A stretch of 64,000 bases of DNA from Longimicrobiales bacterium (GTDB lineage Bacteria > Gemmatimonadota > Gemmatimonadetes > Longimicrobiales > Gaopeijiaceae), in assembly GCA_965242735.1 (NCBI GenBank), contig OZ251497.1, forward strand, positions 1,140,409-1,204,408. The letters run 5' to 3'. The notes beneath the pieces are model-generated. The model saw nothing but the letters and a program-made list of their open reading frames with translations, searched no databases and had not been told where the DNA came from. The position numbers and the translations under genes were made by a program. This document shows positions 1 through 28,857 of the stretch, one piece after another. Within the stretch, counting starts at the first letter, position 1; the number at the start of each line of letters is the position of its first letter.

Positions 1-531
1 GTGCCGGAAGGCGGCATCGACAATCCGACGGGCCACATGCGCTATCCGGGCACGATCAGCCTGCGCGAAGAGACCTACCGGGCCGTGCTGGAGGACGTGG
101 CCGGCAGCCTGCGCGCGCACGGCTTCACGAACATCGTGCTCATCGGCGACAGCGGGGGCAACCAAGCCGGAATGGCGGCCGTGGCCGAGACGCTCAACGC
201 CCGCTGGGGCGGGACCGCGCGCGCCCACTACGTGCCCGAGTTCTACCGCTACCGGGAGGTGCACGAGTGGATGAACGCCGAGCTCGGCATCCACGAGACC
301 ATGAACGAGGGCATTCACGACGACTTCGTCATCACGGCGATCATGATGACCGAGAATCCCGAGACGGTGCGCCACGCCCAGCGCGTGAAGGCGGGCAAGG
401 CGTCGATCAACGGCGTCAGCATCGCCGACGAGGCGGCGACCGTCGAGACGGGCAGGAAGCTGCTTCAGTACCGCGTGGACCGCACGGTGGAGGCGATCCG
501 CAAACGACTCTCCGAGGAGGAAGAAAGATGA
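1..531 (+). CDS. creatininase-family amidohydrolase, C-terminal part (5' end outside window)
   Basis: The ORF is open from the window edge. The translated sequence (..NIVLIGDSGGNQ..IHDDFVITAIMM..) resembles the creatinine amidohydrolase family. Stop TGA 529-531 overlaps the next ATG (ATGA). Confidence 0.6.
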   Translation: MPEGGIDNPTGHMRYPGTISLREETYRAVLEDVAGSLRAHGFTNIVLIGDSGGNQAGMAAVAETLNARWGGTARAHYVPEFYRYREVHEWMNAELGIHETMNEGIHDDFVITAIMMTENPETVRHAQRVKAGKASINGVSIADEAATVETGRKLLQYRVDRTVEAIRKRLSEEEER

Positions 532-1172
532 GGAAGGAAAGGGAAATGCCGAAGCGGCGCGGGCCGAGCGTGCTGGCGGCCTTGCTGGTCGCGGCGCTGG
601 TTGTCGCAGGGGCCGCGATGGGCGCGCCCCGGAGCGCGGCGGCGCAGGAGGCGGGACCTGGACTGATCGAAGTCGGCGCCGAGGCGCCGGACATCGCGTT
701 GACGGGGGCCACCCGGCACGGCGTGCTGCGCGACAGGGTCCGGCTGAGCGACTACCGGGGCGAGACGGTCGTGCTCGCGTTCTTCTTCCGAGTCCGAACA
801 CGCGGCTGAACGGTTCAAATGAGAGCGTACCGGGATCAGTACGCACAACTGTTCAACGACGGAAGAAACGTGGTCGTGCTGGGCATCTCCAACGACTCGC
901 CCGAAGAACTGGCCTCCTGGCTCAAGGACGAGGACTTCCCGTTCGTGTTCGGCAGCGACGCCGAGAACGACGGCGCTTCCTACGCGGCCTTCGGCGGCGG
1001 CCTGCGGGACAACAACATGGTCGACAGCCGGGCCGTGATCGTGGTCGGACCCGACGGACGGGTCGCCAAGGTGATTCCCCGCTTCAACCAAGTGGACCCG
1101 GCCGCCTACGAAGAGCTGGCCGAGGCCGTGGACGCCGTGACGCCCGAACCCGAAGAGGGCGGCGCGCCTTGA
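528..1172 (+). CDS. exported peroxiredoxin (AhpC/TSA, BCP-like) with in-frame TGA 807-809 at the peroxidatic Cys position; probable selenoprotein (alternative: nonsense pseudogene)
   Basis: Same-frame ORFs 528-806 and 810-1172 are separated only by TGA. The joined product has a signal peptide (..LAALLVAALVVAGAAMG..) and a complete Prx fold. The TGA falls in ..VVLAFFFRVRTRG[TGA]TVQMRAYRDQY.., i.e. the T-x-G-C-T motif column. A hairpin follows 16 nt downstream. Confidence 0.6.
825..844 (+). promoter_or_regulatory. SECIS-like hairpin (6-bp perfect stem GCGTAC/GTACGC, 8-nt loop CGGGATCA)
   Basis: Read directly from the sequence. It begins 16 nt 3' of the in-frame TGA, the spacing expected for bacterial SECIS elements. 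Confidence 0.45.
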
Positions 1173-19970: not shown

Positions 19971-21037
19971 GTTCGGACGCGCGCGGCCAGCGCCAGCGCC
20001 GCCGCGAAGAAGACGACGTTGGGGCTCCAGGCCGCCCACCAGGGCGAGAGCGCCCCCGCCTTGCCCGCCGCCGCCGTGAGGTTGAGCAGCAGGTAGTAGA
20101 CCATCGTCGTGCACAAGGACAGGCTGATGCCGAACGCCGCCCCGCTCTTGCGCGACGTCGTCGCCAGCGGGATGCCCAGGAGCACCACCACGAAGGTGGC
20201 GGCGGCCAAGGCGCGCTTCTGTTCGCGCCTGACGAGGAGCTCCCTCGCGTCGCCGCCGGAGCGAATCACGGCTTCCGCCCGCCGCCCCAGCTGGGCGTAC
20301 GTCATCTCGTCGTCCTCGGGCGGGTCCTCGAGCATCTCGTCCGGTTCGACCGACAGCCCGGGGCGGCGGTAGCGGCTGAACCGGTACGTGTCCTCGCTTC
20401 CGTCCGGCGCGATCACGCGAAGGTGTCCTTCGTTGAACGTCCATCCCGGACCGGAGGCGTCGTGCGTCGCTTGGGCGGCCCAGACGTGGCGCAGCGATCC
20501 GTCCCGGTCGCGGCTCTCCAGCGTCACGCCGTCCAACAGGCCCAGGTTCGCGCTGAGCCGCTCCGCCGTCAGCCTCTCGCCGTGCTCGGTCTCGAACACG
20601 AAGTTGGTCCGCCATTCGCGGCGCACATCGCGTTCCTTGTGGAGCTCGGCCGTCCTCCGATTGGCGGCGGGCGAGATTTCGCCCAGCCAGAACGCCGCCC
20701 CCGTCAGCGCGAGCCCCAGCGCCCAGAGCGGGGCGAAGAGCCGATGGAACGAGATACCTCCTCCTTTTGCGGCAAGGACTTCGCGGTGTACCGTCATGGC
20801 GTTGACCGTGAACACGGAAGCCACCAGTCCGGCGATCGGGAAGCCGATCGCCATGTTCTTCGGGTAGGTGTAGACGTACCCCAGGAACATGTCGAGCGTG
20901 GACACGCCGCGGTCGAGAAGGTCGTCGAGGTCTTCCGACAAGCTGGCCACGCTGAGCAGGACCGGAACGCAGAGGATGAAGCAGACGAAGATCGCGAGGA
21001 ACGTGCGGCCGACCAGCCTGTCCAGCACCCAGGTCAC
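19967..21037 (-). CDS. LptF/LptG-family (YjgP/YjgQ) LPS export permease
   Basis: The GTG start 21037 overlaps the upstream stop (GTGA). It has six TM segments with a periplasmic insert, and family-typical ..KSGAAFGISLSL...YY. Confidence 0.75.
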   Translation of the reverse strand: MTWVLDRLVGRTFLAIFVCFILCVPVLLSVASLSEDLDDLLDRGVSTLDMFLGYVYTYPKNMAIGFPIAGLVASVFTVNAMTVHREVLAAKGGGISFHRLFAPLWALGLALTGAAFWLGEISPAANRRTAELHKERDVRREWRTNFVFETEHGERLTAERLSANLGLLDGVTLESRDRDGSLRHVWAAQATHDASGPGWTFNEGHLRVIAPDGSEDTYRFSRYRRPGLSVEPDEMLEDPPEDDEMTYAQLGRRAEAVIRSGGDARELLVRREQKRALAAATFVVVLLGIPLATTSRKSGAAFGISLSLCTTMVYYLLLNLTAAAGKAGALSPWWAAWSPNVVFFAAALALAARVRT

Positions 21038-22455
21038 GAGGCGGAGCGCGGCCTTCGCGCGAGCAGGGCCGCGATCCGGACGGCGCTGTCGCGCAGATGA
21101 GCCAGCGTGCCCGTGCGGCCGGCGTCCACCCAGCGGCCGACGCGCGTGACCATGAAGACGCCCAGGGCGCCGAAGAGGACGTTTGTCGTCCACATGGCCC
21201 AGAAGGGACTGGCCAAGCCGCGATCCGCGAAGTCCTCGCCGTTTTGCAGGCCCACCTGGTACACGGCGAAGACCGCGGTCGAGACGAGGATGACCATCCC
21301 CACGCCGCCCAGCGGATAACGAATGCCCAGCGGCGCTCCGATCAGCACGAACACGACGCACACCGTCGCGAGGACCAGCTTCTTGTGCATTTCGGCCCCG
21401 TAGCTGCGGATTCTCCCTTGCAAGAAGTCGGCCGAGGCCTTGCGGGACTGGGCCGTCTCGACCGACGTGCGCGTCAGCCCGTCGAAGCCGCCCATGAGCC
21501 GCACGGCGCCGTCCCGCTCGCGGGCCTCCGCTTGCGCACGCAGCGAGTCCGCCGCCGGTCCGACGCCCAGCGCCTGCTCGACGGCGGCCCGGGAGCTCTC
21601 TGCCTCCTCGGCTCGAAGAACGGCGAGGCGCTCCCTCGACTCCGCCATGCCCTGCCTCAGCTGCGCGCCCGACATTTCCCTGTCGCTGCGCCGGGCGCCC
21701 TCCGTCTCCTGCAAGACGTTGCCGACGTTGCGAAGCACGTAGAGCCGGTCGCGAAACTCCGTGCGCTGCAACGTCTCCGGCTCGCGCTTCTCGACCTCGT
21801 ACGCCTCGCCTTCCTGCAGCCGCAGATGCAAGTCCGTGAACTGCGCGTTGAGCTGCATCTCGCCCCGCTGCGCGTAGATGGTGCCGCGCGCGGCCGGGCG
21901 GCTCATGTCGTGGATGACGATGCCTTCGAGCCGGTTGGAGACCGGATCGATGGAGTCGGCGCGCAGGAAGTAGGAGCCGCGGGCGTCGGCGGGCGAGATC
22001 TCGTTGAACACCTTGGGCCGCAGGTGGAACGTCGGGCTCTTCTGGTAGATGGAGATGAGCACGCCCTGCAGGCGGTGGTTGGCTTCCGGGAGGATGACGT
22101 CGTTGAACGTGTAGGTCGTGGCGGCCGCGACCATGCCGCACGCGACGGCCGGCAGCAGCATGGCGCGAGGCCTCACGCCGTTGGCCGCCATGGCGACGAT
22201 CTCCCCCGACGCGGCCAAGTCGCTGTAGGTGTAGAGGACGGCCACGAGCATGGCCATCGGGAGCGTGAGGGCGATCGTGTGCGGCAGCATGAGCAGCACC
22301 GCTTCGGCGATGACCTCGGCGGGCAGTCCCTTGCCGACGAATTCCTCCAAGCGGCGCGCCAGGACCTCAATGAACAGGAGCCCGGTCAGCAGCACGAGCG
22401 CAAAGAAGAATGGTCCGAGCAGCGACCGGATCAGGTGGCGGGTCAAGATGGTCAT
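21034..22455 (-). CDS. LptF/LptG-family (YjgP/YjgQ) LPS export permease with enlarged periplasmic/coiled insert
   Basis: The N-terminus MTILTRHLIRSLLGPFFFALVLLTGLLF.. is typical of the family. It is translationally coupled to the next permease gene. Confidence 0.8.
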   Translation of the reverse strand: MTILTRHLIRSLLGPFFFALVLLTGLLFIEVLARRLEEFVGKGLPAEVIAEAVLLMLPHTIALTLPMAMLVAVLYTYSDLAASGEIVAMAANGVRPRAMLLPAVACGMVAAATTYTFNDVILPEANHRLQGVLISIYQKSPTFHLRPKVFNEISPADARGSYFLRADSIDPVSNRLEGIVIHDMSRPAARGTIYAQRGEMQLNAQFTDLHLRLQEGEAYEVEKREPETLQRTEFRDRLYVLRNVGNVLQETEGARRSDREMSGAQLRQGMAESRERLAVLRAEEAESSRAAVEQALGVGPAADSLRAQAEARERDGAVRLMGGFDGLTRTSVETAQSRKASADFLQGRIRSYGAEMHKKLVLATVCVVFVLIGAPLGIRYPLGGVGMVILVSTAVFAVYQVGLQNGEDFADRGLASPFWAMWTTNVLFGALGVFMVTRVGRWVDAGRTGTLAHLRDSAVRIAALLARRPRSAS

Positions 22456-22512
22456 GCGCCCCTCCGGTCCCGGCCGCTAGTCGCCGGGGCTGTTTGCCAA
22501 GTGCGGCCCGGC

Positions 22513-25500
22513 ATGAAGGTAACCGATTGGCGAGGCGGCATGAGGCGCGGCGGGAGGGTGGACGAAGGTCTGGGCGTCCAGCGTCGGCCTGATGCGGGTG
22601 CGGGGCGCGGTGGGACGAGCAGGCCGTTGTCGCCGGTCCGGTTGGCCGCGGGGTTGGCGGTGGTCTTGGGGGCCGGGGCCGAGGGCGCGGAGGGGGCGTC
22701 CGCCGAGGCAGGACGCGTGCCTCCGGCGGTGGCGGAGGAACGGACGGCCGACGCGGGCGGCGCGTCGGCGGGAGCGGTGGGGGAACGGAAGGCAGTCGCC
22801 GTAGCGGCCGTCGCGCGGCCGGCGGTCCGGGCGGCTGGCGGGCTGGGCGCCGCGGCCGCGCCGAGGACGCCTGCGGCGCAGGTCCCCCGGCTTGCGCGCG
22901 ACACGCTCCTGTGGGTCATTCCGCAGCTGCGCGATCCGGACGCCTGGTTGCTGGGGCCGCGTCCTCCGCCCGCGCCCGTGGCGCGCTTGGGGCTTGCCGC
23001 GATTCCGGCGGCGCGGCTGCCGGGAGCGCCGGTCTCCGCGCCTCGGCCCCTCTTCGGGACGGCGCGGCCGGTCTTGCCGTCTCTCGACTGGTCCGGCGAC
23101 CCTCTCTTCAGGTTGGGCGCTTGGGGCCGGACGATCGGGTTCGGAGACGTGCCGCGCCCCCGGGCCGCGGGCCGCGCCCCCGCCGGTCCGGCGGCCGACC
23201 GCCTCGTCAACGACTACGCCGACCTCGGATTCGCCGTGCGGGGAAGCGGCGATCTGGGCGGCGAGTGGGTGCGCTTCCGCCCCTGCGACGAGACCGTGCA
23301 GGCGACGTGCGAAGTGCCGGCGTGGCCTCGGGTGCTCTCCGACATCCGCTTTGCCGCCACGGCCGACGGGACCGTGGCCGGCCGCGTGCGCGTGGACGTG
23401 GACTACGACCAGACCCGCGAATACGCCGGCGCGAACCGCGTCAACATCCACTACCGCGGACGGCCAGGCGAGTTCCTCCAGAGGCTCGACGTGGGCGACA
23501 TCGGCTTCGACCTGCCCGCCTCGCGCTTCCTCAGGGAAGGCGTGCCGGCCGGGAACTTCGGCTTTCGGGCGGTCGCGAACGCGGGGCCGCTCGACATGCA
23601 GGCCGTGTGGGCCCAGCAGAACGGCGAAGTCACGTCGCGCCGGTTCCAGCTGGAGAGCGCGGGCCGATCCCACTCCCGCAGCGACACGCTCGCCCTCGAC
23701 GACGCCGACTACGCCGCCGGCCAGTTCTTCTTCCTCTTCGATCCGGTCGCGTTCGCCGAGTACCCTCACGTGGATGTGCTCTCGTTGCCGTCGTCGAGCG
23801 GACGAATCGCGAACGCGCCCGCCGCCGGGCATCCCGTCCAGCTCTATCGATCGGCGATCGATCTCTACGCGCAGCAGCAGGTGGAGGGCGCCATCCAGGC
23901 GGAAGCCGTGGCGGGGCTCGGCGCGGACACGGTGCGCGAATCCGCTTGGTTCCGGTATCTGCAACCGGGCCAGGACTACGTGGTGCACCCCAGCGGGCTC
24001 TGGGTCGCGTTGCGCTCTCCGCTGGGACCCAGCGAGATGCTGGCCGTCAGCTACGTCACCGCCGCGGGCGACACGGTCGGCGCCTACGACCCCGAACGCG
24101 TCTACCGGGCGGGCGGACTGCCTCGCCTTCGCTTGCTCCGGGCCTCCCAGGCGCAGCACCAGCCGGGGCGGCCGACGTGGCGCACCGAAATGCACCAGGT
24201 GTATCGCGTGTCGTCTTCCGGCGACGTGGCGCCGGGGTCGCTCGACTTGGTGATCTCGGCAGGCTCGCAGAGCGCGGGCCGCACGTTCGCCCGGCGTCCC
24301 AACGGCGACGACGTCACGTACCTGCGCCTTCTCGGCATGGACGAGGACGCGCCCGCGGACCGTCTCGACGAGTCCCAGGTCTACCGGCCCGCTCGCGACT
24401 CGTTCGACGATCTGCCCCCCGTGCGCGGCACGTACGTCGTCTTCCCCTCGCTCGAGCCCTTCGCCGACCCCGGGCCCGTGGCCAGCCTCTCGATGGGCGC
24501 GGACGAAGCGAGGGCCATGCTGGGCCCCAACCGCAACACGCGCATCTACGGCGCCCTTGATCCCTTCGAGCGCCGAAACGGCGGCGTCTTCCGGCTGTCC
24601 TTCGCGTACGAAGTCCGGGGCGCGGGACTGGTCTCGTCCTTCGACTTGGAGGCCGTGGGCATCCGCCCCGGGACCGAGACGGTCACGTTGGGCGATCAAG
24701 TCCTCGAGCGCGGCGCGGACTATTCGATCGACTACGACCTCGGCCAGCTCGAGCTGACCGACCCTGGAGGGTTGCTGGCGGCCAATCCCGACCGGCAGCT
24801 CGAGGTCTCTTGGGAACAGCGCAGCTTCTTTCAGGTCGCCCCCACGTCGGTCCTGGGCGGCAGCGCCAAGTACGACTTGGGCGCCTACGGAGCCATCAGC
24901 GCGTTCGGCCTCTACCAGACGGAAGGCGAGCTCGTGCGGCGGCCGCAGCTCGGCGTCGAGGCCCGGTCCGTCGGACTCGGCGGCGCCGTCGGATCGGTCG
25001 ACCTGGACGCGCCGCAGATCGCTCGCGCCCTGGCCGCCGTCGGAGGCTTGCGCGACGGCGAGCGCGCGTCGGTGAGGCTCTCGGGCGAGGCGCTCGTCTC
25101 CCTCCCCAATCCCAACACCCAGGGGGCCGCCTACCTGGACGACTACGACGGCACGGAGGCGCGGCGGCTCTCCGTGCGAAGCCACGACTGGCGGTTGGGG
25201 AGCCGTCCCGCGTTTCGAGACGGCGCCGAGCACGTGCTTCCGGCCGACCTGTCGCAGGCCAGCGTCGCCGCGCTCTCCTGGCAGCACCAGTGGATCGTGG
25301 AGGACGCGGCGGGCGACAGCCTCGGGGTCTTCGGCGGCTTCCATCCCGCCACCGACATCGACCAGCAGATACGGATCACGGGCAGCGCGGCGCGCGACCA
25401 GGGGCTGCACATCCGCTTCGACCCGGGCCGGGGCGACCGCGAAGGGCCGCAGGCGTGGTCGGCGATCACCACCGTGCTGAGCGTGGCCGGCGCCGACCTC

Positions 25501-28500
25501 ACCAAGAGCGACTTGATCGAGTTCTACGTTCGCGACGGCGAGCATCTGAACTTGGTGCTGGACGTCGGCGTGGTGAGCGAGGACGCGTTCTTCGTGGACG
25601 CCGACGGAATGCTGGGAGGCGTGAAGACGGGCACCGGCGTTCCCTGGGGCGAGGGGCGCCTGGACCAGGAAGCCGATCCGCGCCGAGGGGAGGTGTGGGG
25701 CGACGTGGCGGACGCCCGGGGCGTGTGGGACGAGCAGTGCCTCCAGGAGCGCGGCCGGGTCTACCGGCTGGGCGACTCGGACGCGAACTGCACGCGCGGA
25801 AACGGCCGCCCCGATTCCGAGGACCTGGACGAGGACGGCGTGCTCGACACGACCGAGCGCTACCGTCGCTTCGTGATTCCGCTGGACGGATCCTCGCGAT
25901 TTCTGGCGCGCGACCGCGGCGAGACCGGCACGCGCTTTCGTCTCTACCGGATTCCGTTGCGGGACCCGGCGGCGCTCGACGTGGGCGGGCCGGTCGGCGA
26001 GGCCGAGCTGCGGGCGGTTCGCCACGTCCGGTTGGCCGTGACGGGCGCGCGCCGGGATTCCTTCGTGCTGGCGCGCTTCGGCATCGTGGGCTCGACATGG
26101 ATCAAGCGCGCCCAGTCCGGCGTGCTGGAGGGACTGGGAGGCGACCGGACCTCGGCGAGGGGCCGCGTCGAAGTGGGGCCCGTCTCGGCGCTGACCGCGG
26201 GCGACGCCTACGTCTCGCCGCCGGGCGTCGTGGAGCAGCTCGACGACCCGACGGCCACGTTCGGGGGCCAGGGCGTGGAGTTCAACGAGCGGTCTCTCTC
26301 CGTCGCCTTCGAGGACCTGCAGCCGGGCGACCGGGCCGAGGTGTACAACCGCTTCCCGCAGCGTCCTCGCGACTTCCTGCCGTACCGCGAGGCCCGGCTC
26401 TGGGTCGTGGCGCCGCGCGGGGACGGCTTCGGTCTCTCGTCGCCGAGCTGGTTCTTCCTGAAGGTGGGCACGGACGCCGAGAACTTCTACTTGTACCGCA
26501 CGCGCTTGGAGCCCTCGGCGGCGCAGGGGCGCGTGCGCGAGGAGGACTGGCTGCCGGAGGTCGTCGTCGACTTCGACGAGTGGCTCGATCTGCGGCGCGT
26601 CGCCGAAGACCGGCTGGTGCGCGACCCGCGCGCGGCGGGAGCGGATCCGCTGGTCGTGTGGTCGCCCGACTCGGCCTACGCGGTCGTGATGCGGGACCGG
26701 GGCCGGGCGCCCAACTTGGCCGCGGTGCGCGAGATGAGCGTGGGCGTGCTGAACGAGACCGGCAGGCCGATCTCGGGCGAGGTCTGGGTGGACGAGCTGC
26801 GCCTGCACGGCGGACTTCGGGAGGCCGGCCTGGCGACGGCGTTCGACGCCGTCCTGGAAGGGGGCGCCTTTCTGCAGTCGCGGGCGTCGCTGCGCACCCA
26901 GGGAGGGTTCTTTCGGCAGCTTCGCGAGGCGCCCTCGTTTCGGGACGAGCGCGGCCTGGACCTGCGCGCATCGCTTCAGCTGGGCCGCTTGGCGCCCGAC
27001 GCCTGGGCGCTGGAGGCGCCGCTGACGGTGACCTACGAGCGCGACCGGCAGGCGCCCGTCTTCCTGGAGCGCAGCGACGTGCGCGCCGACCGCCTGGAGG
27101 GGCTCCGTCGTCCGGGGTTCGGCAGAGTGCGGGCCGACGTGTCCCTTCGCCGCAACGCCAACCCGAGCGACGGCTTCTGGCGGGCGGTGGCCGACGGCCT
27201 CGACCTGCGCGCCGGCGTGGTGCGTTCTTCGTTCCGCACCGCCACCGCCGAGAGCGACAGCGAGGGGGTCGACGGATTCCTGGGCTATTCGGCGACGCCC
27301 GGCCGCAGGGACTTCCCGGTGTTTCCTGGGAGGGCGGGCGACTTCCTGAAGGCCGTGCTCCCTCGCTTCCTGGAAGACCGAATCGCGGGAGCGCGGCTCC
27401 GGTGGACCCCCGAGCAGCTGTCGTTCGAGGGCGAACTGGCCCGCCAGGACGTCGGCACGCGCCGCTTCCAGCATGTGATTCGCACGCCCGAGGACTCCCT
27501 TGCCACGGTCGTCGCCGCGCCGAGAAAGACGTTCGTCGGAACGGCGCGGATCGCCCTGCGCCCGTTCGAGTCCTTCTCGGCCGAAGCCGACCTGACCAGC
27601 GGCCGCGATCTGCTGGACCCGGCGCAGCTGGTCGCGGGCGAGGAGGCCCGAGAGCTGCTTGCCGGCGAGCGGACCCGCCTGGCCAGCATCGACTTCGGAT
27701 GGGAGGTCGACCGGCGCCTGCGCACCCGCTTGGCGTTCTTGCCCCGGTTGTCGAACTGGGCGCGCACCAGCGTCCAAGCGACGACGCTCTATCTGTCGGA
27801 GCGCAACTCCGACCTGATCGGAAGGCCCGGAGGACCCAACGCGCCCCTGCGGCTCTTGCGCAACGCGGGCGGGCGGCGAGACCTCTCGGCAGCGCTTTCG
27901 ATCGAGCCGGCGCGGCTGGCGGCCGAACGCGCGGAGGCGGGCTCGGCGGCGCGGCGCGTGCTGGGCGCCGTCCAACCGCTGTCCATCACGTACGCGAACG
28001 GCTACAGCTCGCGCTTCAACCGGGACGCGGTCGATCCCGGCGCCGCGTACGAGCTGGGATGGGGACGCCGCGAGGACTTCCTGAGGATTGGGCCCGACTC
28101 CGCCTCCGTCTTCAGCCACCGGCGGCGGCTGAGCCTTCGAGGCGGGACGGCGCTGATCGGATCGCTGTCCGTCGGACTGGGCTACGACCGCTCGCTGCAC
28201 GAGACGCTCGACGCGCGCTCCGACCGCGACGTGGCGCGCCGCGTCTGGCCGGACGTGGAGGTCGTCGCCGCCGATCTTCCGCGACCCGGGTTCTTGGCGG
28301 CCTTCTTGCGCCGCGCTTCGGCCTCCGGCGGCTACCGGAGGGAAACGCGGACGCGGACGTTCGGGGCGGACAGTCGGCAGGACCGGTTCCGCGAAGACCG
28401 GGAGGTGCCCGTGACCCTGACGCTGCGGTTCGCGGGCGGCCTATCGGTGGCGTACCGCGGCCGGACAAACCGGGGCGAGAGCGCCGATCCGACGGGGGAC

Positions 28501-28857
28501 ACGCGGCGCCGGAGCAGCACGCATTCCGTCGCCGCCTCCGCGCCTCTGCGTTCGCCGCTGAGGATGTTCCGCGCGCAGGGCGCGCCGATGACGCTGACCC
28601 TGAACCTGGGCTACGCGGACGAGACGGAATGCCGTGTGGCCTCGGCGGGCAGGCCGTGCGTGCCGTTCGTCGACCAGCTCGACCGCACCGCTTCGTTCTC
28701 GGTCGACTCCTCGGTCCGCGACTTCCAGCTGGGCGTTCGGCTTCGCTTCATCGACCGCCGGTCCTTCGTCGGACAACGAGCTGGAACCACCCGCTTTCGG
28801 CTCGACGTCCACGGGCGCTTCGCGCTGACGCCCGCGATGCTGCGGGGCAGGACCTGA
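22513..28857 (+). CDS. sprA: cell-surface protein SprA-like (type IX secretion translocon family)
   Basis: About 2114 aa with beta-rich blocks resembling SprA (..GNFGFRAVANAGPLDMQAVWAQQNGEVTSRRFQ..). The start is uncertain: ATG 22513 is the first in frame, and the rest of ORF 21097-28857 upstream is antisense to lptF. Confidence 0.65.
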   Translation: MKVTDWRGGMRRGGRVDEGLGVQRRPDAGAGRGGTSRPLSPVRLAAGLAVVLGAGAEGAEGASAEAGRVPPAVAEERTADAGGASAGAVGERKAVAVAAVARPAVRAAGGLGAAAAPRTPAAQVPRLARDTLLWVIPQLRDPDAWLLGPRPPPAPVARLGLAAIPAARLPGAPVSAPRPLFGTARPVLPSLDWSGDPLFRLGAWGRTIGFGDVPRPRAAGRAPAGPAADRLVNDYADLGFAVRGSGDLGGEWVRFRPCDETVQATCEVPAWPRVLSDIRFAATADGTVAGRVRVDVDYDQTREYAGANRVNIHYRGRPGEFLQRLDVGDIGFDLPASRFLREGVPAGNFGFRAVANAGPLDMQAVWAQQNGEVTSRRFQLESAGRSHSRSDTLALDDADYAAGQFFFLFDPVAFAEYPHVDVLSLPSSSGRIANAPAAGHPVQLYRSAIDLYAQQQVEGAIQAEAVAGLGADTVRESAWFRYLQPGQDYVVHPSGLWVALRSPLGPSEMLAVSYVTAAGDTVGAYDPERVYRAGGLPRLRLLRASQAQHQPGRPTWRTEMHQVYRVSSSGDVAPGSLDLVISAGSQSAGRTFARRPNGDDVTYLRLLGMDEDAPADRLDESQVYRPARDSFDDLPPVRGTYVVFPSLEPFADPGPVASLSMGADEARAMLGPNRNTRIYGALDPFERRNGGVFRLSFAYEVRGAGLVSSFDLEAVGIRPGTETVTLGDQVLERGADYSIDYDLGQLELTDPGGLLAANPDRQLEVSWEQRSFFQVAPTSVLGGSAKYDLGAYGAISAFGLYQTEGELVRRPQLGVEARSVGLGGAVGSVDLDAPQIARALAAVGGLRDGERASVRLSGEALVSLPNPNTQGAAYLDDYDGTEARRLSVRSHDWRLGSRPAFRDGAEHVLPADLSQASVAALSWQHQWIVEDAAGDSLGVFGGFHPATDIDQQIRITGSAARDQGLHIRFDPGRGDREGPQAWSAITTVLSVAGADLTKSDLIEFYVRDGEHLNLVLDVGVVSEDAFFVDADGMLGGVKTGTGVPWGEGRLDQEADPRRGEVWGDVADARGVWDEQCLQERGRVYRLGDSDANCTRGNGRPDSEDLDEDGVLDTTERYRRFVIPLDGSSRFLARDRGETGTRFRLYRIPLRDPAALDVGGPVGEAELRAVRHVRLAVTGARRDSFVLARFGIVGSTWIKRAQSGVLEGLGGDRTSARGRVEVGPVSALTAGDAYVSPPGVVEQLDDPTATFGGQGVEFNERSLSVAFEDLQPGDRAEVYNRFPQRPRDFLPYREARLWVVAPRGDGFGLSSPSWFFLKVGTDAENFYLYRTRLEPSAAQGRVREEDWLPEVVVDFDEWLDLRRVAEDRLVRDPRAAGADPLVVWSPDSAYAVVMRDRGRAPNLAAVREMSVGVLNETGRPISGEVWVDELRLHGGLREAGLATAFDAVLEGGAFLQSRASLRTQGGFFRQLREAPSFRDERGLDLRASLQLGRLAPDAWALEAPLTVTYERDRQAPVFLERSDVRADRLEGLRRPGFGRVRADVSLRRNANPSDGFWRAVADGLDLRAGVVRSSFRTATAESDSEGVDGFLGYSATPGRRDFPVFPGRAGDFLKAVLPRFLEDRIAGARLRWTPEQLSFEGELARQDVGTRRFQHVIRTPEDSLATVVAAPRKTFVGTARIALRPFESFSAEADLTSGRDLLDPAQLVAGEEARELLAGERTRLASIDFGWEVDRRLRTRLAFLPRLSNWARTSVQATTLYLSERNSDLIGRPGGPNAPLRLLRNAGGRRDLSAALSIEPARLAAERAEAGSAARRVLGAVQPLSITYANGYSSRFNRDAVDPGAAYELGWGRREDFLRIGPDSASVFSHRRRLSLRGGTALIGSLSVGLGYDRSLHETLDARSDRDVARRVWPDVEVVAADLPRPGFLAAFLRRASASGGYRRETRTRTFGADSRQDRFREDREVPVTLTLRFAGGLSVAYRGRTNRGESADPTGDTRRRSSTHSVAASAPLRSPLRMFRAQGAPMTLTLNLGYADETECRVASAGRPCVPFVDQLDRTASFSVDSSVRDFQLGVRLRFIDRRSFVGQRAGTTRFRLDVHGRFALTPAMLRGRT

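Follow-up and report, generated by a model that had tools for sequence, protein, structure and literature searches.

Peroxiredoxins that carry selenocysteine (Sec, U) in place of the peroxidatic cysteine are listed among the bacterial selenoprotein families (PMC13188914, PMC2398784, PMC5029168). Family members with the motif T-x-x-U, given as PxxxTxxU in a 2026 review (PMC13188914), numbered 253 in an ocean survey and were found in 78 organisms among more than 5200 genomes (PMC2398784, PMC5029168). The gene described here lies near one end of a 64,000-nucleotide stretch of DNA (the window) from a Longimicrobiales bacterium of the phylum Gemmatimonadota (assembly GCA_965242735.1, contig OZ251497.1, positions 1,140,409 to 1,204,408). 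An initial annotation of the window had proposed an exported Sec-peroxiredoxin at positions 528 to 1172 and had assigned it to an established bacterial family, which the cited literature confirms to exist. Our analysis leads to the conclusion that positions 528 (or 546) to 1172 very probably form a single gene, encoding a BCP/PrxQ-like peroxiredoxin that is predicted to be exported and has Sec as its peroxidatic residue.

Two further systems serve as reference points. The consensus model of the bacterial Sec insertion sequence (bSECIS) comprises an apical loop of 3-9 nt on an upper stem of 4-16 bp, with a G within the first two bases of the loop, usually followed by G or U; the distance from the UGA to the loop is 16-37 nt and the minimum free energy (MFE) is -7.5 kcal/mol or lower (PMC13188914). 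A pathway consisting of a DsbD-family transporter, a TlpA protein and a periplasmic peroxiredoxin (ScsB-TlpA-PprX) was demonstrated in Caulobacter crescentus (PMC3322552).

Gene structure and conservation of the UGA codon

The peroxiredoxin coding sequence occupies positions 528 to 1172 of the plus strand (214 codons plus the stop codon TGA at 1170-1172). The sole stop that separates an open reading frame (ORF) ending at position 806 from a second ORF at 819-1172 is TGA 807-809; both ORFs are in plus-strand frame 3. Read-through joins them as ...FFFRVRTRG-[UGA]-TVQMRAYRDQYA... When U was replaced by C, the Pfam model AhpC-TSA (PF00578) matched residues 49-181 across the internal TGA (E 5.8e-21), the match covering profile positions 1-123 of 124, i.e. 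essentially the whole profile. The initial annotation had described two same-frame ORFs parted by nothing but this TGA, and the continuous domain match bears it out.

ATG 528 overlaps the stop codon (TGA 529-531) of an upstream creatininase-family ORF. Translation could as plausibly start at ATG 546; the orthologues open with MR[RK] immediately ahead of a hydrophobic segment. A signal peptide is predicted at the N terminus (528-644, plus strand): inspection of the translation by eye suggests a basic n-region, an Ala/Leu/Val-rich core and a likely cleavage site at AAA/QE. The same layout (basic n-region, hydrophobic core, A-x-A-Q-E or ...A.AQE) recurs in the orthologues displayed, as judged by inspection.

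Relatives of the gene were collected by two scans. The genome scan, with one genome per GTDB species, returned 406 relatives, of which the best 80 loci (L001-L080) were analysed; the metagenome scan was seeded with a Cys-form query and gave another 80 loci. The genome-derived gene set (n=80) consists of 79 genome loci and the window gene, and the pooled set of TGA genes comprises 158 members. Nearly all of the best 80 of the 406 loci are labelled Gemmatimonadota and stem mainly from metagenome-assembled genomes of Longimicrobiales, closed chromosomes being among them; the exceptions are L066, labelled as an uncultured bacterium, and L071, labelled as an archaeon. Complete genomes with the gene include OZ245028.1, OZ242008.1, OZ241892.1 and OY282361.1.

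The codon in question was TGA in 80/80 genome loci (in L077 by manual check) and, despite the Cys-form query, in 74/80 metagenome loci. TGA is likewise present at this position in L084, L085 and the two tandem copies of L086, which are split forms of greater divergence. The 80 genome-derived genes are all mutually distinct in DNA sequence, and their alignment shows strong amino-acid conservation on either side of the TGA codon. If the TGA were a nonsense mutation that had inactivated an ordinary Cys-peroxiredoxin, the one-base difference between TGA and TGC, the two ORFs returned by gene callers and the 117-120 amino acid (aa) fragments in the database would all be accounted for. Such a pseudogene is hardly credible. 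The same TGA recurs in every one of the species-level genomes and in most of the metagenome contigs without other shared lesions, on either side of it the proteins are about 55-88% identical to that of the window gene, no relaxation of selection 3' of the TGA is visible in the 80-gene alignment, and there is strong additional selection on an RNA hairpin farther downstream (see below). According to the initial annotation, nearest relatives with TGC or TGT at this codon, no hairpin and additional disabling mutations would have spoken against a selenoprotein; what we saw was the opposite.

Three side observations concern these loci. One metagenome contig carries tandem TGA-peroxiredoxins (L086:3032 and L086:3914) with the identical hairpin in both, followed by a tlpA-like gene and ccdA. 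L071 (PBUX01000064.1), labelled 'Methanobacteriota archaeon', has a TGA-peroxiredoxin within a tlpA-like/ccdA neighbourhood of the Gemmatimonadota type, and the contig is probably mis-binned or mislabelled. Synonymous variation is also reduced in the codons just 5' of the UGA (window positions 801-806; CGT 63/71, GGC 77/80), perhaps because the sequence context influences how the UGA is decoded.

In a protein search, the full-length homologues, about 100 in number and roughly 190-200 aa long, had Cys where the window gene has UGA. The search also yielded sixteen fragments of 117-143 aa, labelled 'peroxiredoxin' or unnamed, every one of which starts at the Met four codons past the stop. This is the signature of orthologues split by gene callers, and the many database fragments of 117-120 aa agree with the earlier expectation that standard annotation would divide the gene. 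The split could also be taken at face value: an exported peptide of 93 residues and, from ATG 819 onwards, a cytoplasmic protein of 117 residues would be made separately, the hairpin serving as a coupling or attenuation signal. ATG 819, 9 nt past the TGA, is invariant, and gene callers predict precisely these two products. This Met is, however, part of a conserved T-V-Q-M motif, and the Cys homologues, whose frame is uninterrupted, show no variation there either. Neither half makes up a complete thioredoxin fold, both being needed for the Pfam domain and for the BCP structures, and the division would have to coincide with the catalytic residue. We regard two separate products as very improbable.

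If the organism read TGA as a sense codon, the in-frame TGA itself would be explained, but nothing more. In the window TGA terminates 5/8 of the confident long ORFs, and it is also the stop codon of the peroxiredoxin gene and of the creatininase gene; 21/80 of the peroxiredoxin genes end with it. When the 64 kb were scanned for further in-frame TGAs flanked on either side by coding signal, only gene junctions and non-coding frames came up. TGA is thus an ordinary stop codon of this genome, which rules out a reassigned code and leaves this explanation a negligible probability.

The hairpin downstream of the UGA codon

A SECIS-type hairpin lies at 825-844 on the plus strand. Its stem has 6 bp (GCGUAC/GUACGC) and its loop 8 nt, reading CGGGAUCA in the window and CGUGAUCA in the family consensus. 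The arms of the inverted repeat (825-830 and 839-844) are 100% complementary and have 8 nt between them; 15 nt lie between A809 and G825, the stem thus beginning at the 16th base past the TGA. A perfect hairpin at these positions, at the distance where SECIS elements sit, had been noted in the initial annotation, and both its pairing and its spacing held up.

The dimensions of the hairpin (loop 8 nt, stem 6 bp, UGA-to-loop distance 21 nt) are all within the ranges of the bSECIS model. The loop starts with C-G-U in the family and with C-G-G in the window, so that G is in second position and is followed by U or G. The MFE was -7.0 kcal/mol for the bare 20 nt, -8.5 kcal/mol with 2-3 flanking bases and -15.5 kcal/mol for 60 nt. 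On these values the hairpin conforms to the published bacterial SECIS model.

Taken alone, the window hairpin is unremarkable (z = -1.78 for the 60-nt fold). The stem pattern, with one mismatch allowed, occurs twice in the window against 0.22 occurrences expected. The significance of the hairpin derives from the occurrence of an identical TGA and hairpin in about 160 orthologues, not from the fold of a single sequence. The 20-nt hairpin GCGTAC-CGTGATCA-GTACGC was identical in 154/158 TGA genes, the stem being invariant. The four exceptional hairpins have one loop change each; in the window and in two close relatives, CGG stands in place of CGT. Conservation of the element in UGA-containing orthologues, which the initial annotation had left to be checked, was therefore found to be nearly complete, with its synonymous sites frozen and the element decayed in distant Cys forms.

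The freezing is evident at the level of individual codons. Over positions 822-845, the 80 genes have AGA in 66/66, GCG in 80/80, TAC in 80/80, CGT in 77/80, GAT in 79/80, CAG in 80/80, TAC in 80/80 and GCA in 78/80 cases, and three of these codons (CGT, GAT and GCA) oppose the GC-rich codon preference of the rest of the gene. Codon entropy at the other Ala and Arg columns of the peroxiredoxin gene is 0.5-2.1 bits. Normalised synonymous entropy was 0.034 in the eight hairpin codons, compared with 0.58 in the other 114 informative codons. The hairpin is the eight-codon stretch of lowest entropy in the gene (permutation within amino-acid classes, p<=1e-5; Mann-Whitney, 1.3e-6). Judged by these synonymous sites, the hairpin is under selection at the RNA level.

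Distant Cys forms of the gene encode A-Y-R-D-Q-Y with the codons GCC, TAT, CGC/CGG and GAC, and the hairpin is gone (-0.5 kcal/mol; L169, L170). Only one Cys form, L083, lies within the Sec clade as judged by sequence; at the codon a single base sets it apart (TGC), and its hairpin is intact, which fits a recent Sec-to-Cys conversion.

Silent or G-U wobble changes would be possible at two stem pairs out of six (827-842 and 830-839) but never occur, which argues for selection on the exact stem. RNAalifold retained the 6-bp helix of the hairpin only. An extended lower stem suggested by the window fold (UGAACGGUU paired with AACUGUUCA) was rejected as part of the conserved element: its outer four pairs vary little and show no covariation, and its inner pairs form in 42-96% of the sequences.

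Active site, neighbourhood and decoding

The active-site block T-R-G-U is encoded at 798-809 (plus strand), with Thr91 at 798-800 and the UGA codon of Sec94 at 807-809. In the alignments the U column corresponds to the Cys of R-T-x-G-C-T-[VI]-Q-M in the Cys homologues; the motif T/S-x-x-C-T-x-Q-M is carried by 102 Cys-form database proteins. The closest solved relatives are BCP peroxiredoxins (2cx3, 2ywn, 3hjp; E 1.3e-11), and U aligns with Cys49 of the Aeropyrum pernix BCP (2cx3), the peroxidatic Cys of that enzyme. The UGA had been placed at the peroxidatic position by the initial annotation, and the alignment with the Cys of about 100 homologues and with Cys49 agrees with this placement. 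Arg168 (1029-1031, plus strand) aligns with the arginine of the KRAVF segment of 2cx3, and is the conserved active-site arginine of peroxiredoxins. It is invariant in 80/80 orthologues and in the alignments with homologues, and Thr91 is invariant as well.

A resolving Cys of the BCP type is missing: position +5 from U is Arg99, where 2cx3 has Cys54, its resolving residue. The mature region has no Cys at all in 80/80 orthologues. An enzyme with one Sec and zero Cys must be recycled by an external reductant.

The complete pattern PxxxTxxU plus a distal Arg is not present in the window gene. Thr91, Sec94 and Arg168 are there, whereas the Pro is replaced by Phe87 (786-788, plus strand). All 158 Sec forms share this departure, with F in 135 and Y in 23; the Cys forms have P at the same position in 101/102 database proteins and in 10/11 DNA loci. 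The only Cys form with Phe there is L083:1465 (P0001; FFRVRTTG-C, codon TGC). The association of the Pro to Phe/Tyr change with Sec may simply mark a single clade, and does not count as independent evidence of co-adaptation.

Two genes on the minus strand follow the peroxiredoxin gene. The first (1183-1719) encodes a TlpA-like, predicted exported thioredoxin with a WCENC motif, matched by the Pfam models Redoxin, AhpC-TSA, Thioredoxin_8 and Thioredoxin. The second (2108-2830) encodes a membrane electron transporter of the CcdA/DsbD family (Pfam DsbD_TM, 4.4e-47). The tlpA-like gene is convergent with and immediately downstream of the peroxiredoxin gene in 73/80 loci, and ccdA adjoins in 70/80. 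The pair is also present in L086 and beside the close Cys form L167, and is missing at the distant Cys forms L168 and L169. On the other side, the 3' part of a creatininase-family gene, cut by the window edge, occupies 1-531 of the plus strand (Pfam Creatininase, 1.3e-21); a creatininase gene is upstream in only 30/80 loci. The initial annotation had listed the TlpA and CcdA genes and an ATGA-type coupling to the creatininase gene as the context of the peroxiredoxin. The first part proved to be conserved and the overlap is present, but the coupling is not conserved, and the overlap is probably incidental, given that the creatininase gene adjoins in so few loci. Creatininase was for the same reason rejected as a functional partner.

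Two features of the window were noted in passing. A tandem array with a 25-nt period (1707-1834; 5.3 copies, 75% match, consensus GGCGCGAGTCATCGGCGCGCTACA) covers the start codon and the upstream region of the minus-strand tlpA-like gene. A very long ORF (about 2,625 codons), which ends in TGA and whose GC profile resembles that of coding sequence, extends from 20980 to 28857 on the plus strand.

These elements suggest the following working of the system. SelB with Sec-tRNA(Sec) would read UGA 807-809 as Sec, recruited by the hairpin at 825-844, which would display the loop C-G-U/G-G-A-U-C-A from its position 15 nt past the UGA. The signal peptide would take the peroxiredoxin out of the cytoplasm. 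In the cell envelope Sec94, together with Thr91 and Arg168, would reduce peroxides and be converted to selenenic acid, with no internal residue to resolve it. The oxidised Sec would most likely be reduced by the adjacent exported TlpA-like thioredoxin, to which electrons would pass from cytoplasmic thioredoxin by way of the adjacent CcdA.

A scan of the related loci for conserved in-frame TGAs revealed a second UGA gene in 17 of them, about 9.5 kb downstream of the peroxiredoxin gene. It encodes an exported AhpC/TSA-like protein with the sequence FYRGHW-U-PYC, i.e. with the UxxC motif of the Prx-like selenoprotein family. A hairpin, CAGCUC-GUG-GAGCUG, starts 15 nt past its own UGA, an offset identical to that in the peroxiredoxin gene. 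The carriers are L001 (at 19967), L003, L004, L009, L011, L012, L017, L019, L021, L028, L032, L035, L037, L038, L042, L046 and L064; the FYRGHW-U-PYC gene is absent from the window. That two unrelated UGA genes share the same SECIS geometry within one lineage would be difficult to account for if no SelB system were at work.

Several observations weigh against the reading of the gene as a selenoprotein gene. Neither the 64-kb window nor the L001-L080 flanks (about 1.4 Mb) gave hits to SelA, SelB or SelD in tblastn with the E. coli proteins, or to tRNA-Sec with ARAGORN, and the Sec-decoding trait is something we infer for the organism. In the literature searched, Sec use was not reported for Gemmatimonadota, Longimicrobia or Palauibacter. 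As for the hairpin, the bare 20-nt form (-7.0 kcal/mol) is slightly weaker than the -7.5 kcal/mol cut-off; the stem never varies, so that covariation is absent and the pairing itself is a prediction; and the longer lower stem of the window fold is not conserved. Across the whole window no Rfam family scored above its gathering threshold, and the region 760-900 gave only noise at E<=10, a null result that is uninformative for bacterial SECIS elements. Finally, export is predicted from inspection of the translation, and the suggested link to TlpA and CcdA from gene order and domain content.

The UGA might be recoded by a mechanism of the SelB/SECIS type that inserts Cys, from a Cys-charged tRNA-Sec-like tRNA, or by near-cognate read-through some other residue. 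Besides the failure to find Sec genes in the window and related flanks, there is a precedent to be considered: Mukai et al. in 2016 reportedly proposed SelB-dependent Cys insertion at UGA for some uncultured bacteria. Three points tell against this alternative. A costly UGA with a hairpin would not be expected to persist when a one-base change to TGC suffices, as occurred in L083; the Pro to Phe/Tyr change of the Sec clade suggests a residue chemically unlike Cys; and related genomes contain the second gene, which belongs to the classic UxxC selenoprotein family. We consider insertion of Cys or another residue improbable, and Sec the residue to be expected at position 94.

Implications and comparison with known systems

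With high confidence, then, we place the peroxiredoxin gene of the window among the genuine selenoprotein genes, within the known Sec-peroxiredoxin family. To a specialist in selenoproteins, the mere occurrence of a Sec-peroxiredoxin would come as no surprise. A wider proposal is tentative, and we think it rather less likely than otherwise: that the gene belongs to an unreported, lineage-wide selenoprotein system of Gemmatimonadota, in which the active-site pocket has been rebuilt around selenium and the SECIS is recognised by its sequence, not by its shape. If this were true, the replacement of Pro by Phe or Tyr (158/158 Sec forms, against 1/102 Cys-form proteins) would represent an active site remodelled for Sec. 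The stem, which in about 160 genes has no wobble-preserving or compensatory synonymous change, would belong to a SECIS read by sequence.

Some consequences are practical. In hundreds of genomes and metagenome contigs of Gemmatimonadota the gene stands as two fragments or as a pseudogene, and its recognition restores a complete, predicted antioxidant enzyme of the envelope. The lineage, aerobic soil and marine members included, is flagged as probable users of Sec. The Sec/Phe-Tyr forms, the Cys/Pro forms and the recent Cys/Phe revertant with its hairpin constitute a natural series with which to ask what selenium gives a peroxiredoxin. As a probe, the invariant 20-nt hairpin offers a simple way to find the gene, and it is a candidate for a minimal SECIS recognised by the SelB of the phylum.

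The closest described relatives are the Prx selenoproteins (PF00578), which include named types such as PrxU of Eubacterium acidaminophilum and the Prx of ocean metagenomes. The gene shares with them the AhpC/TSA domain, a T-x-x-U motif with Sec at the position of the peroxidatic Cys, a SECIS just downstream and many Cys homologues. It differs in being BCP/PrxQ-like rather than AhpC/Prx1-like, in its predicted signal peptide, in having no Cys, in the replacement of the motif Pro by Phe or Tyr, and in its host phylum, Gemmatimonadota, for which Sec use was not reported in the literature searched. It is an equivalog of neither PrxU nor BCP/PrxQ. The score was 37.3 bits for PrxU (NCBIfam NF040737), where the cut-off is 270, and 53.9 bits for BCP/PrxQ (NCBIfam NF006960), where the cut-off is 140. 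None of the NCBIfam models attains its threshold, in line with the split annotation in public data.

The Prx-like UxxC selenoproteins (PF00578) are of the same superfamily and are also exported, and a member with W-U-P-Y-C is present in the 17 related genomes mentioned above. Their Sec is part of a UxxC redox motif, in contrast to the T-x-x-U peroxidatic position of the gene described here.

The hairpin can be compared with the SECIS of E. coli fdhF. Both are stem-loops within the coding sequence and have G, then U or G, early in a small apical loop. The fdhF loop, GGUC, starts 18 nt past the UGA and the loop described here 21 nt past it, i.e. within 3 nt, and the G and U are at +22/+23 in fdhF and at +25/+26 here. 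The sequence is unrelated to that of fdhF, the 8-nt loop is near the upper limit of the consensus model and no bulged U was identified in the hairpin. Unlike elements conserved in shape only, the hairpin keeps an invariant sequence throughout about 160 genes.

The Caulobacter ScsB-TlpA-PprX pathway offers the nearest parallel for the neighbourhood. As in that pathway, a putatively exported peroxiredoxin is encoded beside a TlpA-like thioredoxin and a DsbD-family transporter. The transporter is, however, of the short CcdA type rather than ScsB, the peroxiredoxin would act through Sec with no resolving Cys, and the electron path, which gene order suggests here, would run from CcdA through the TlpA-like protein to Sec94.

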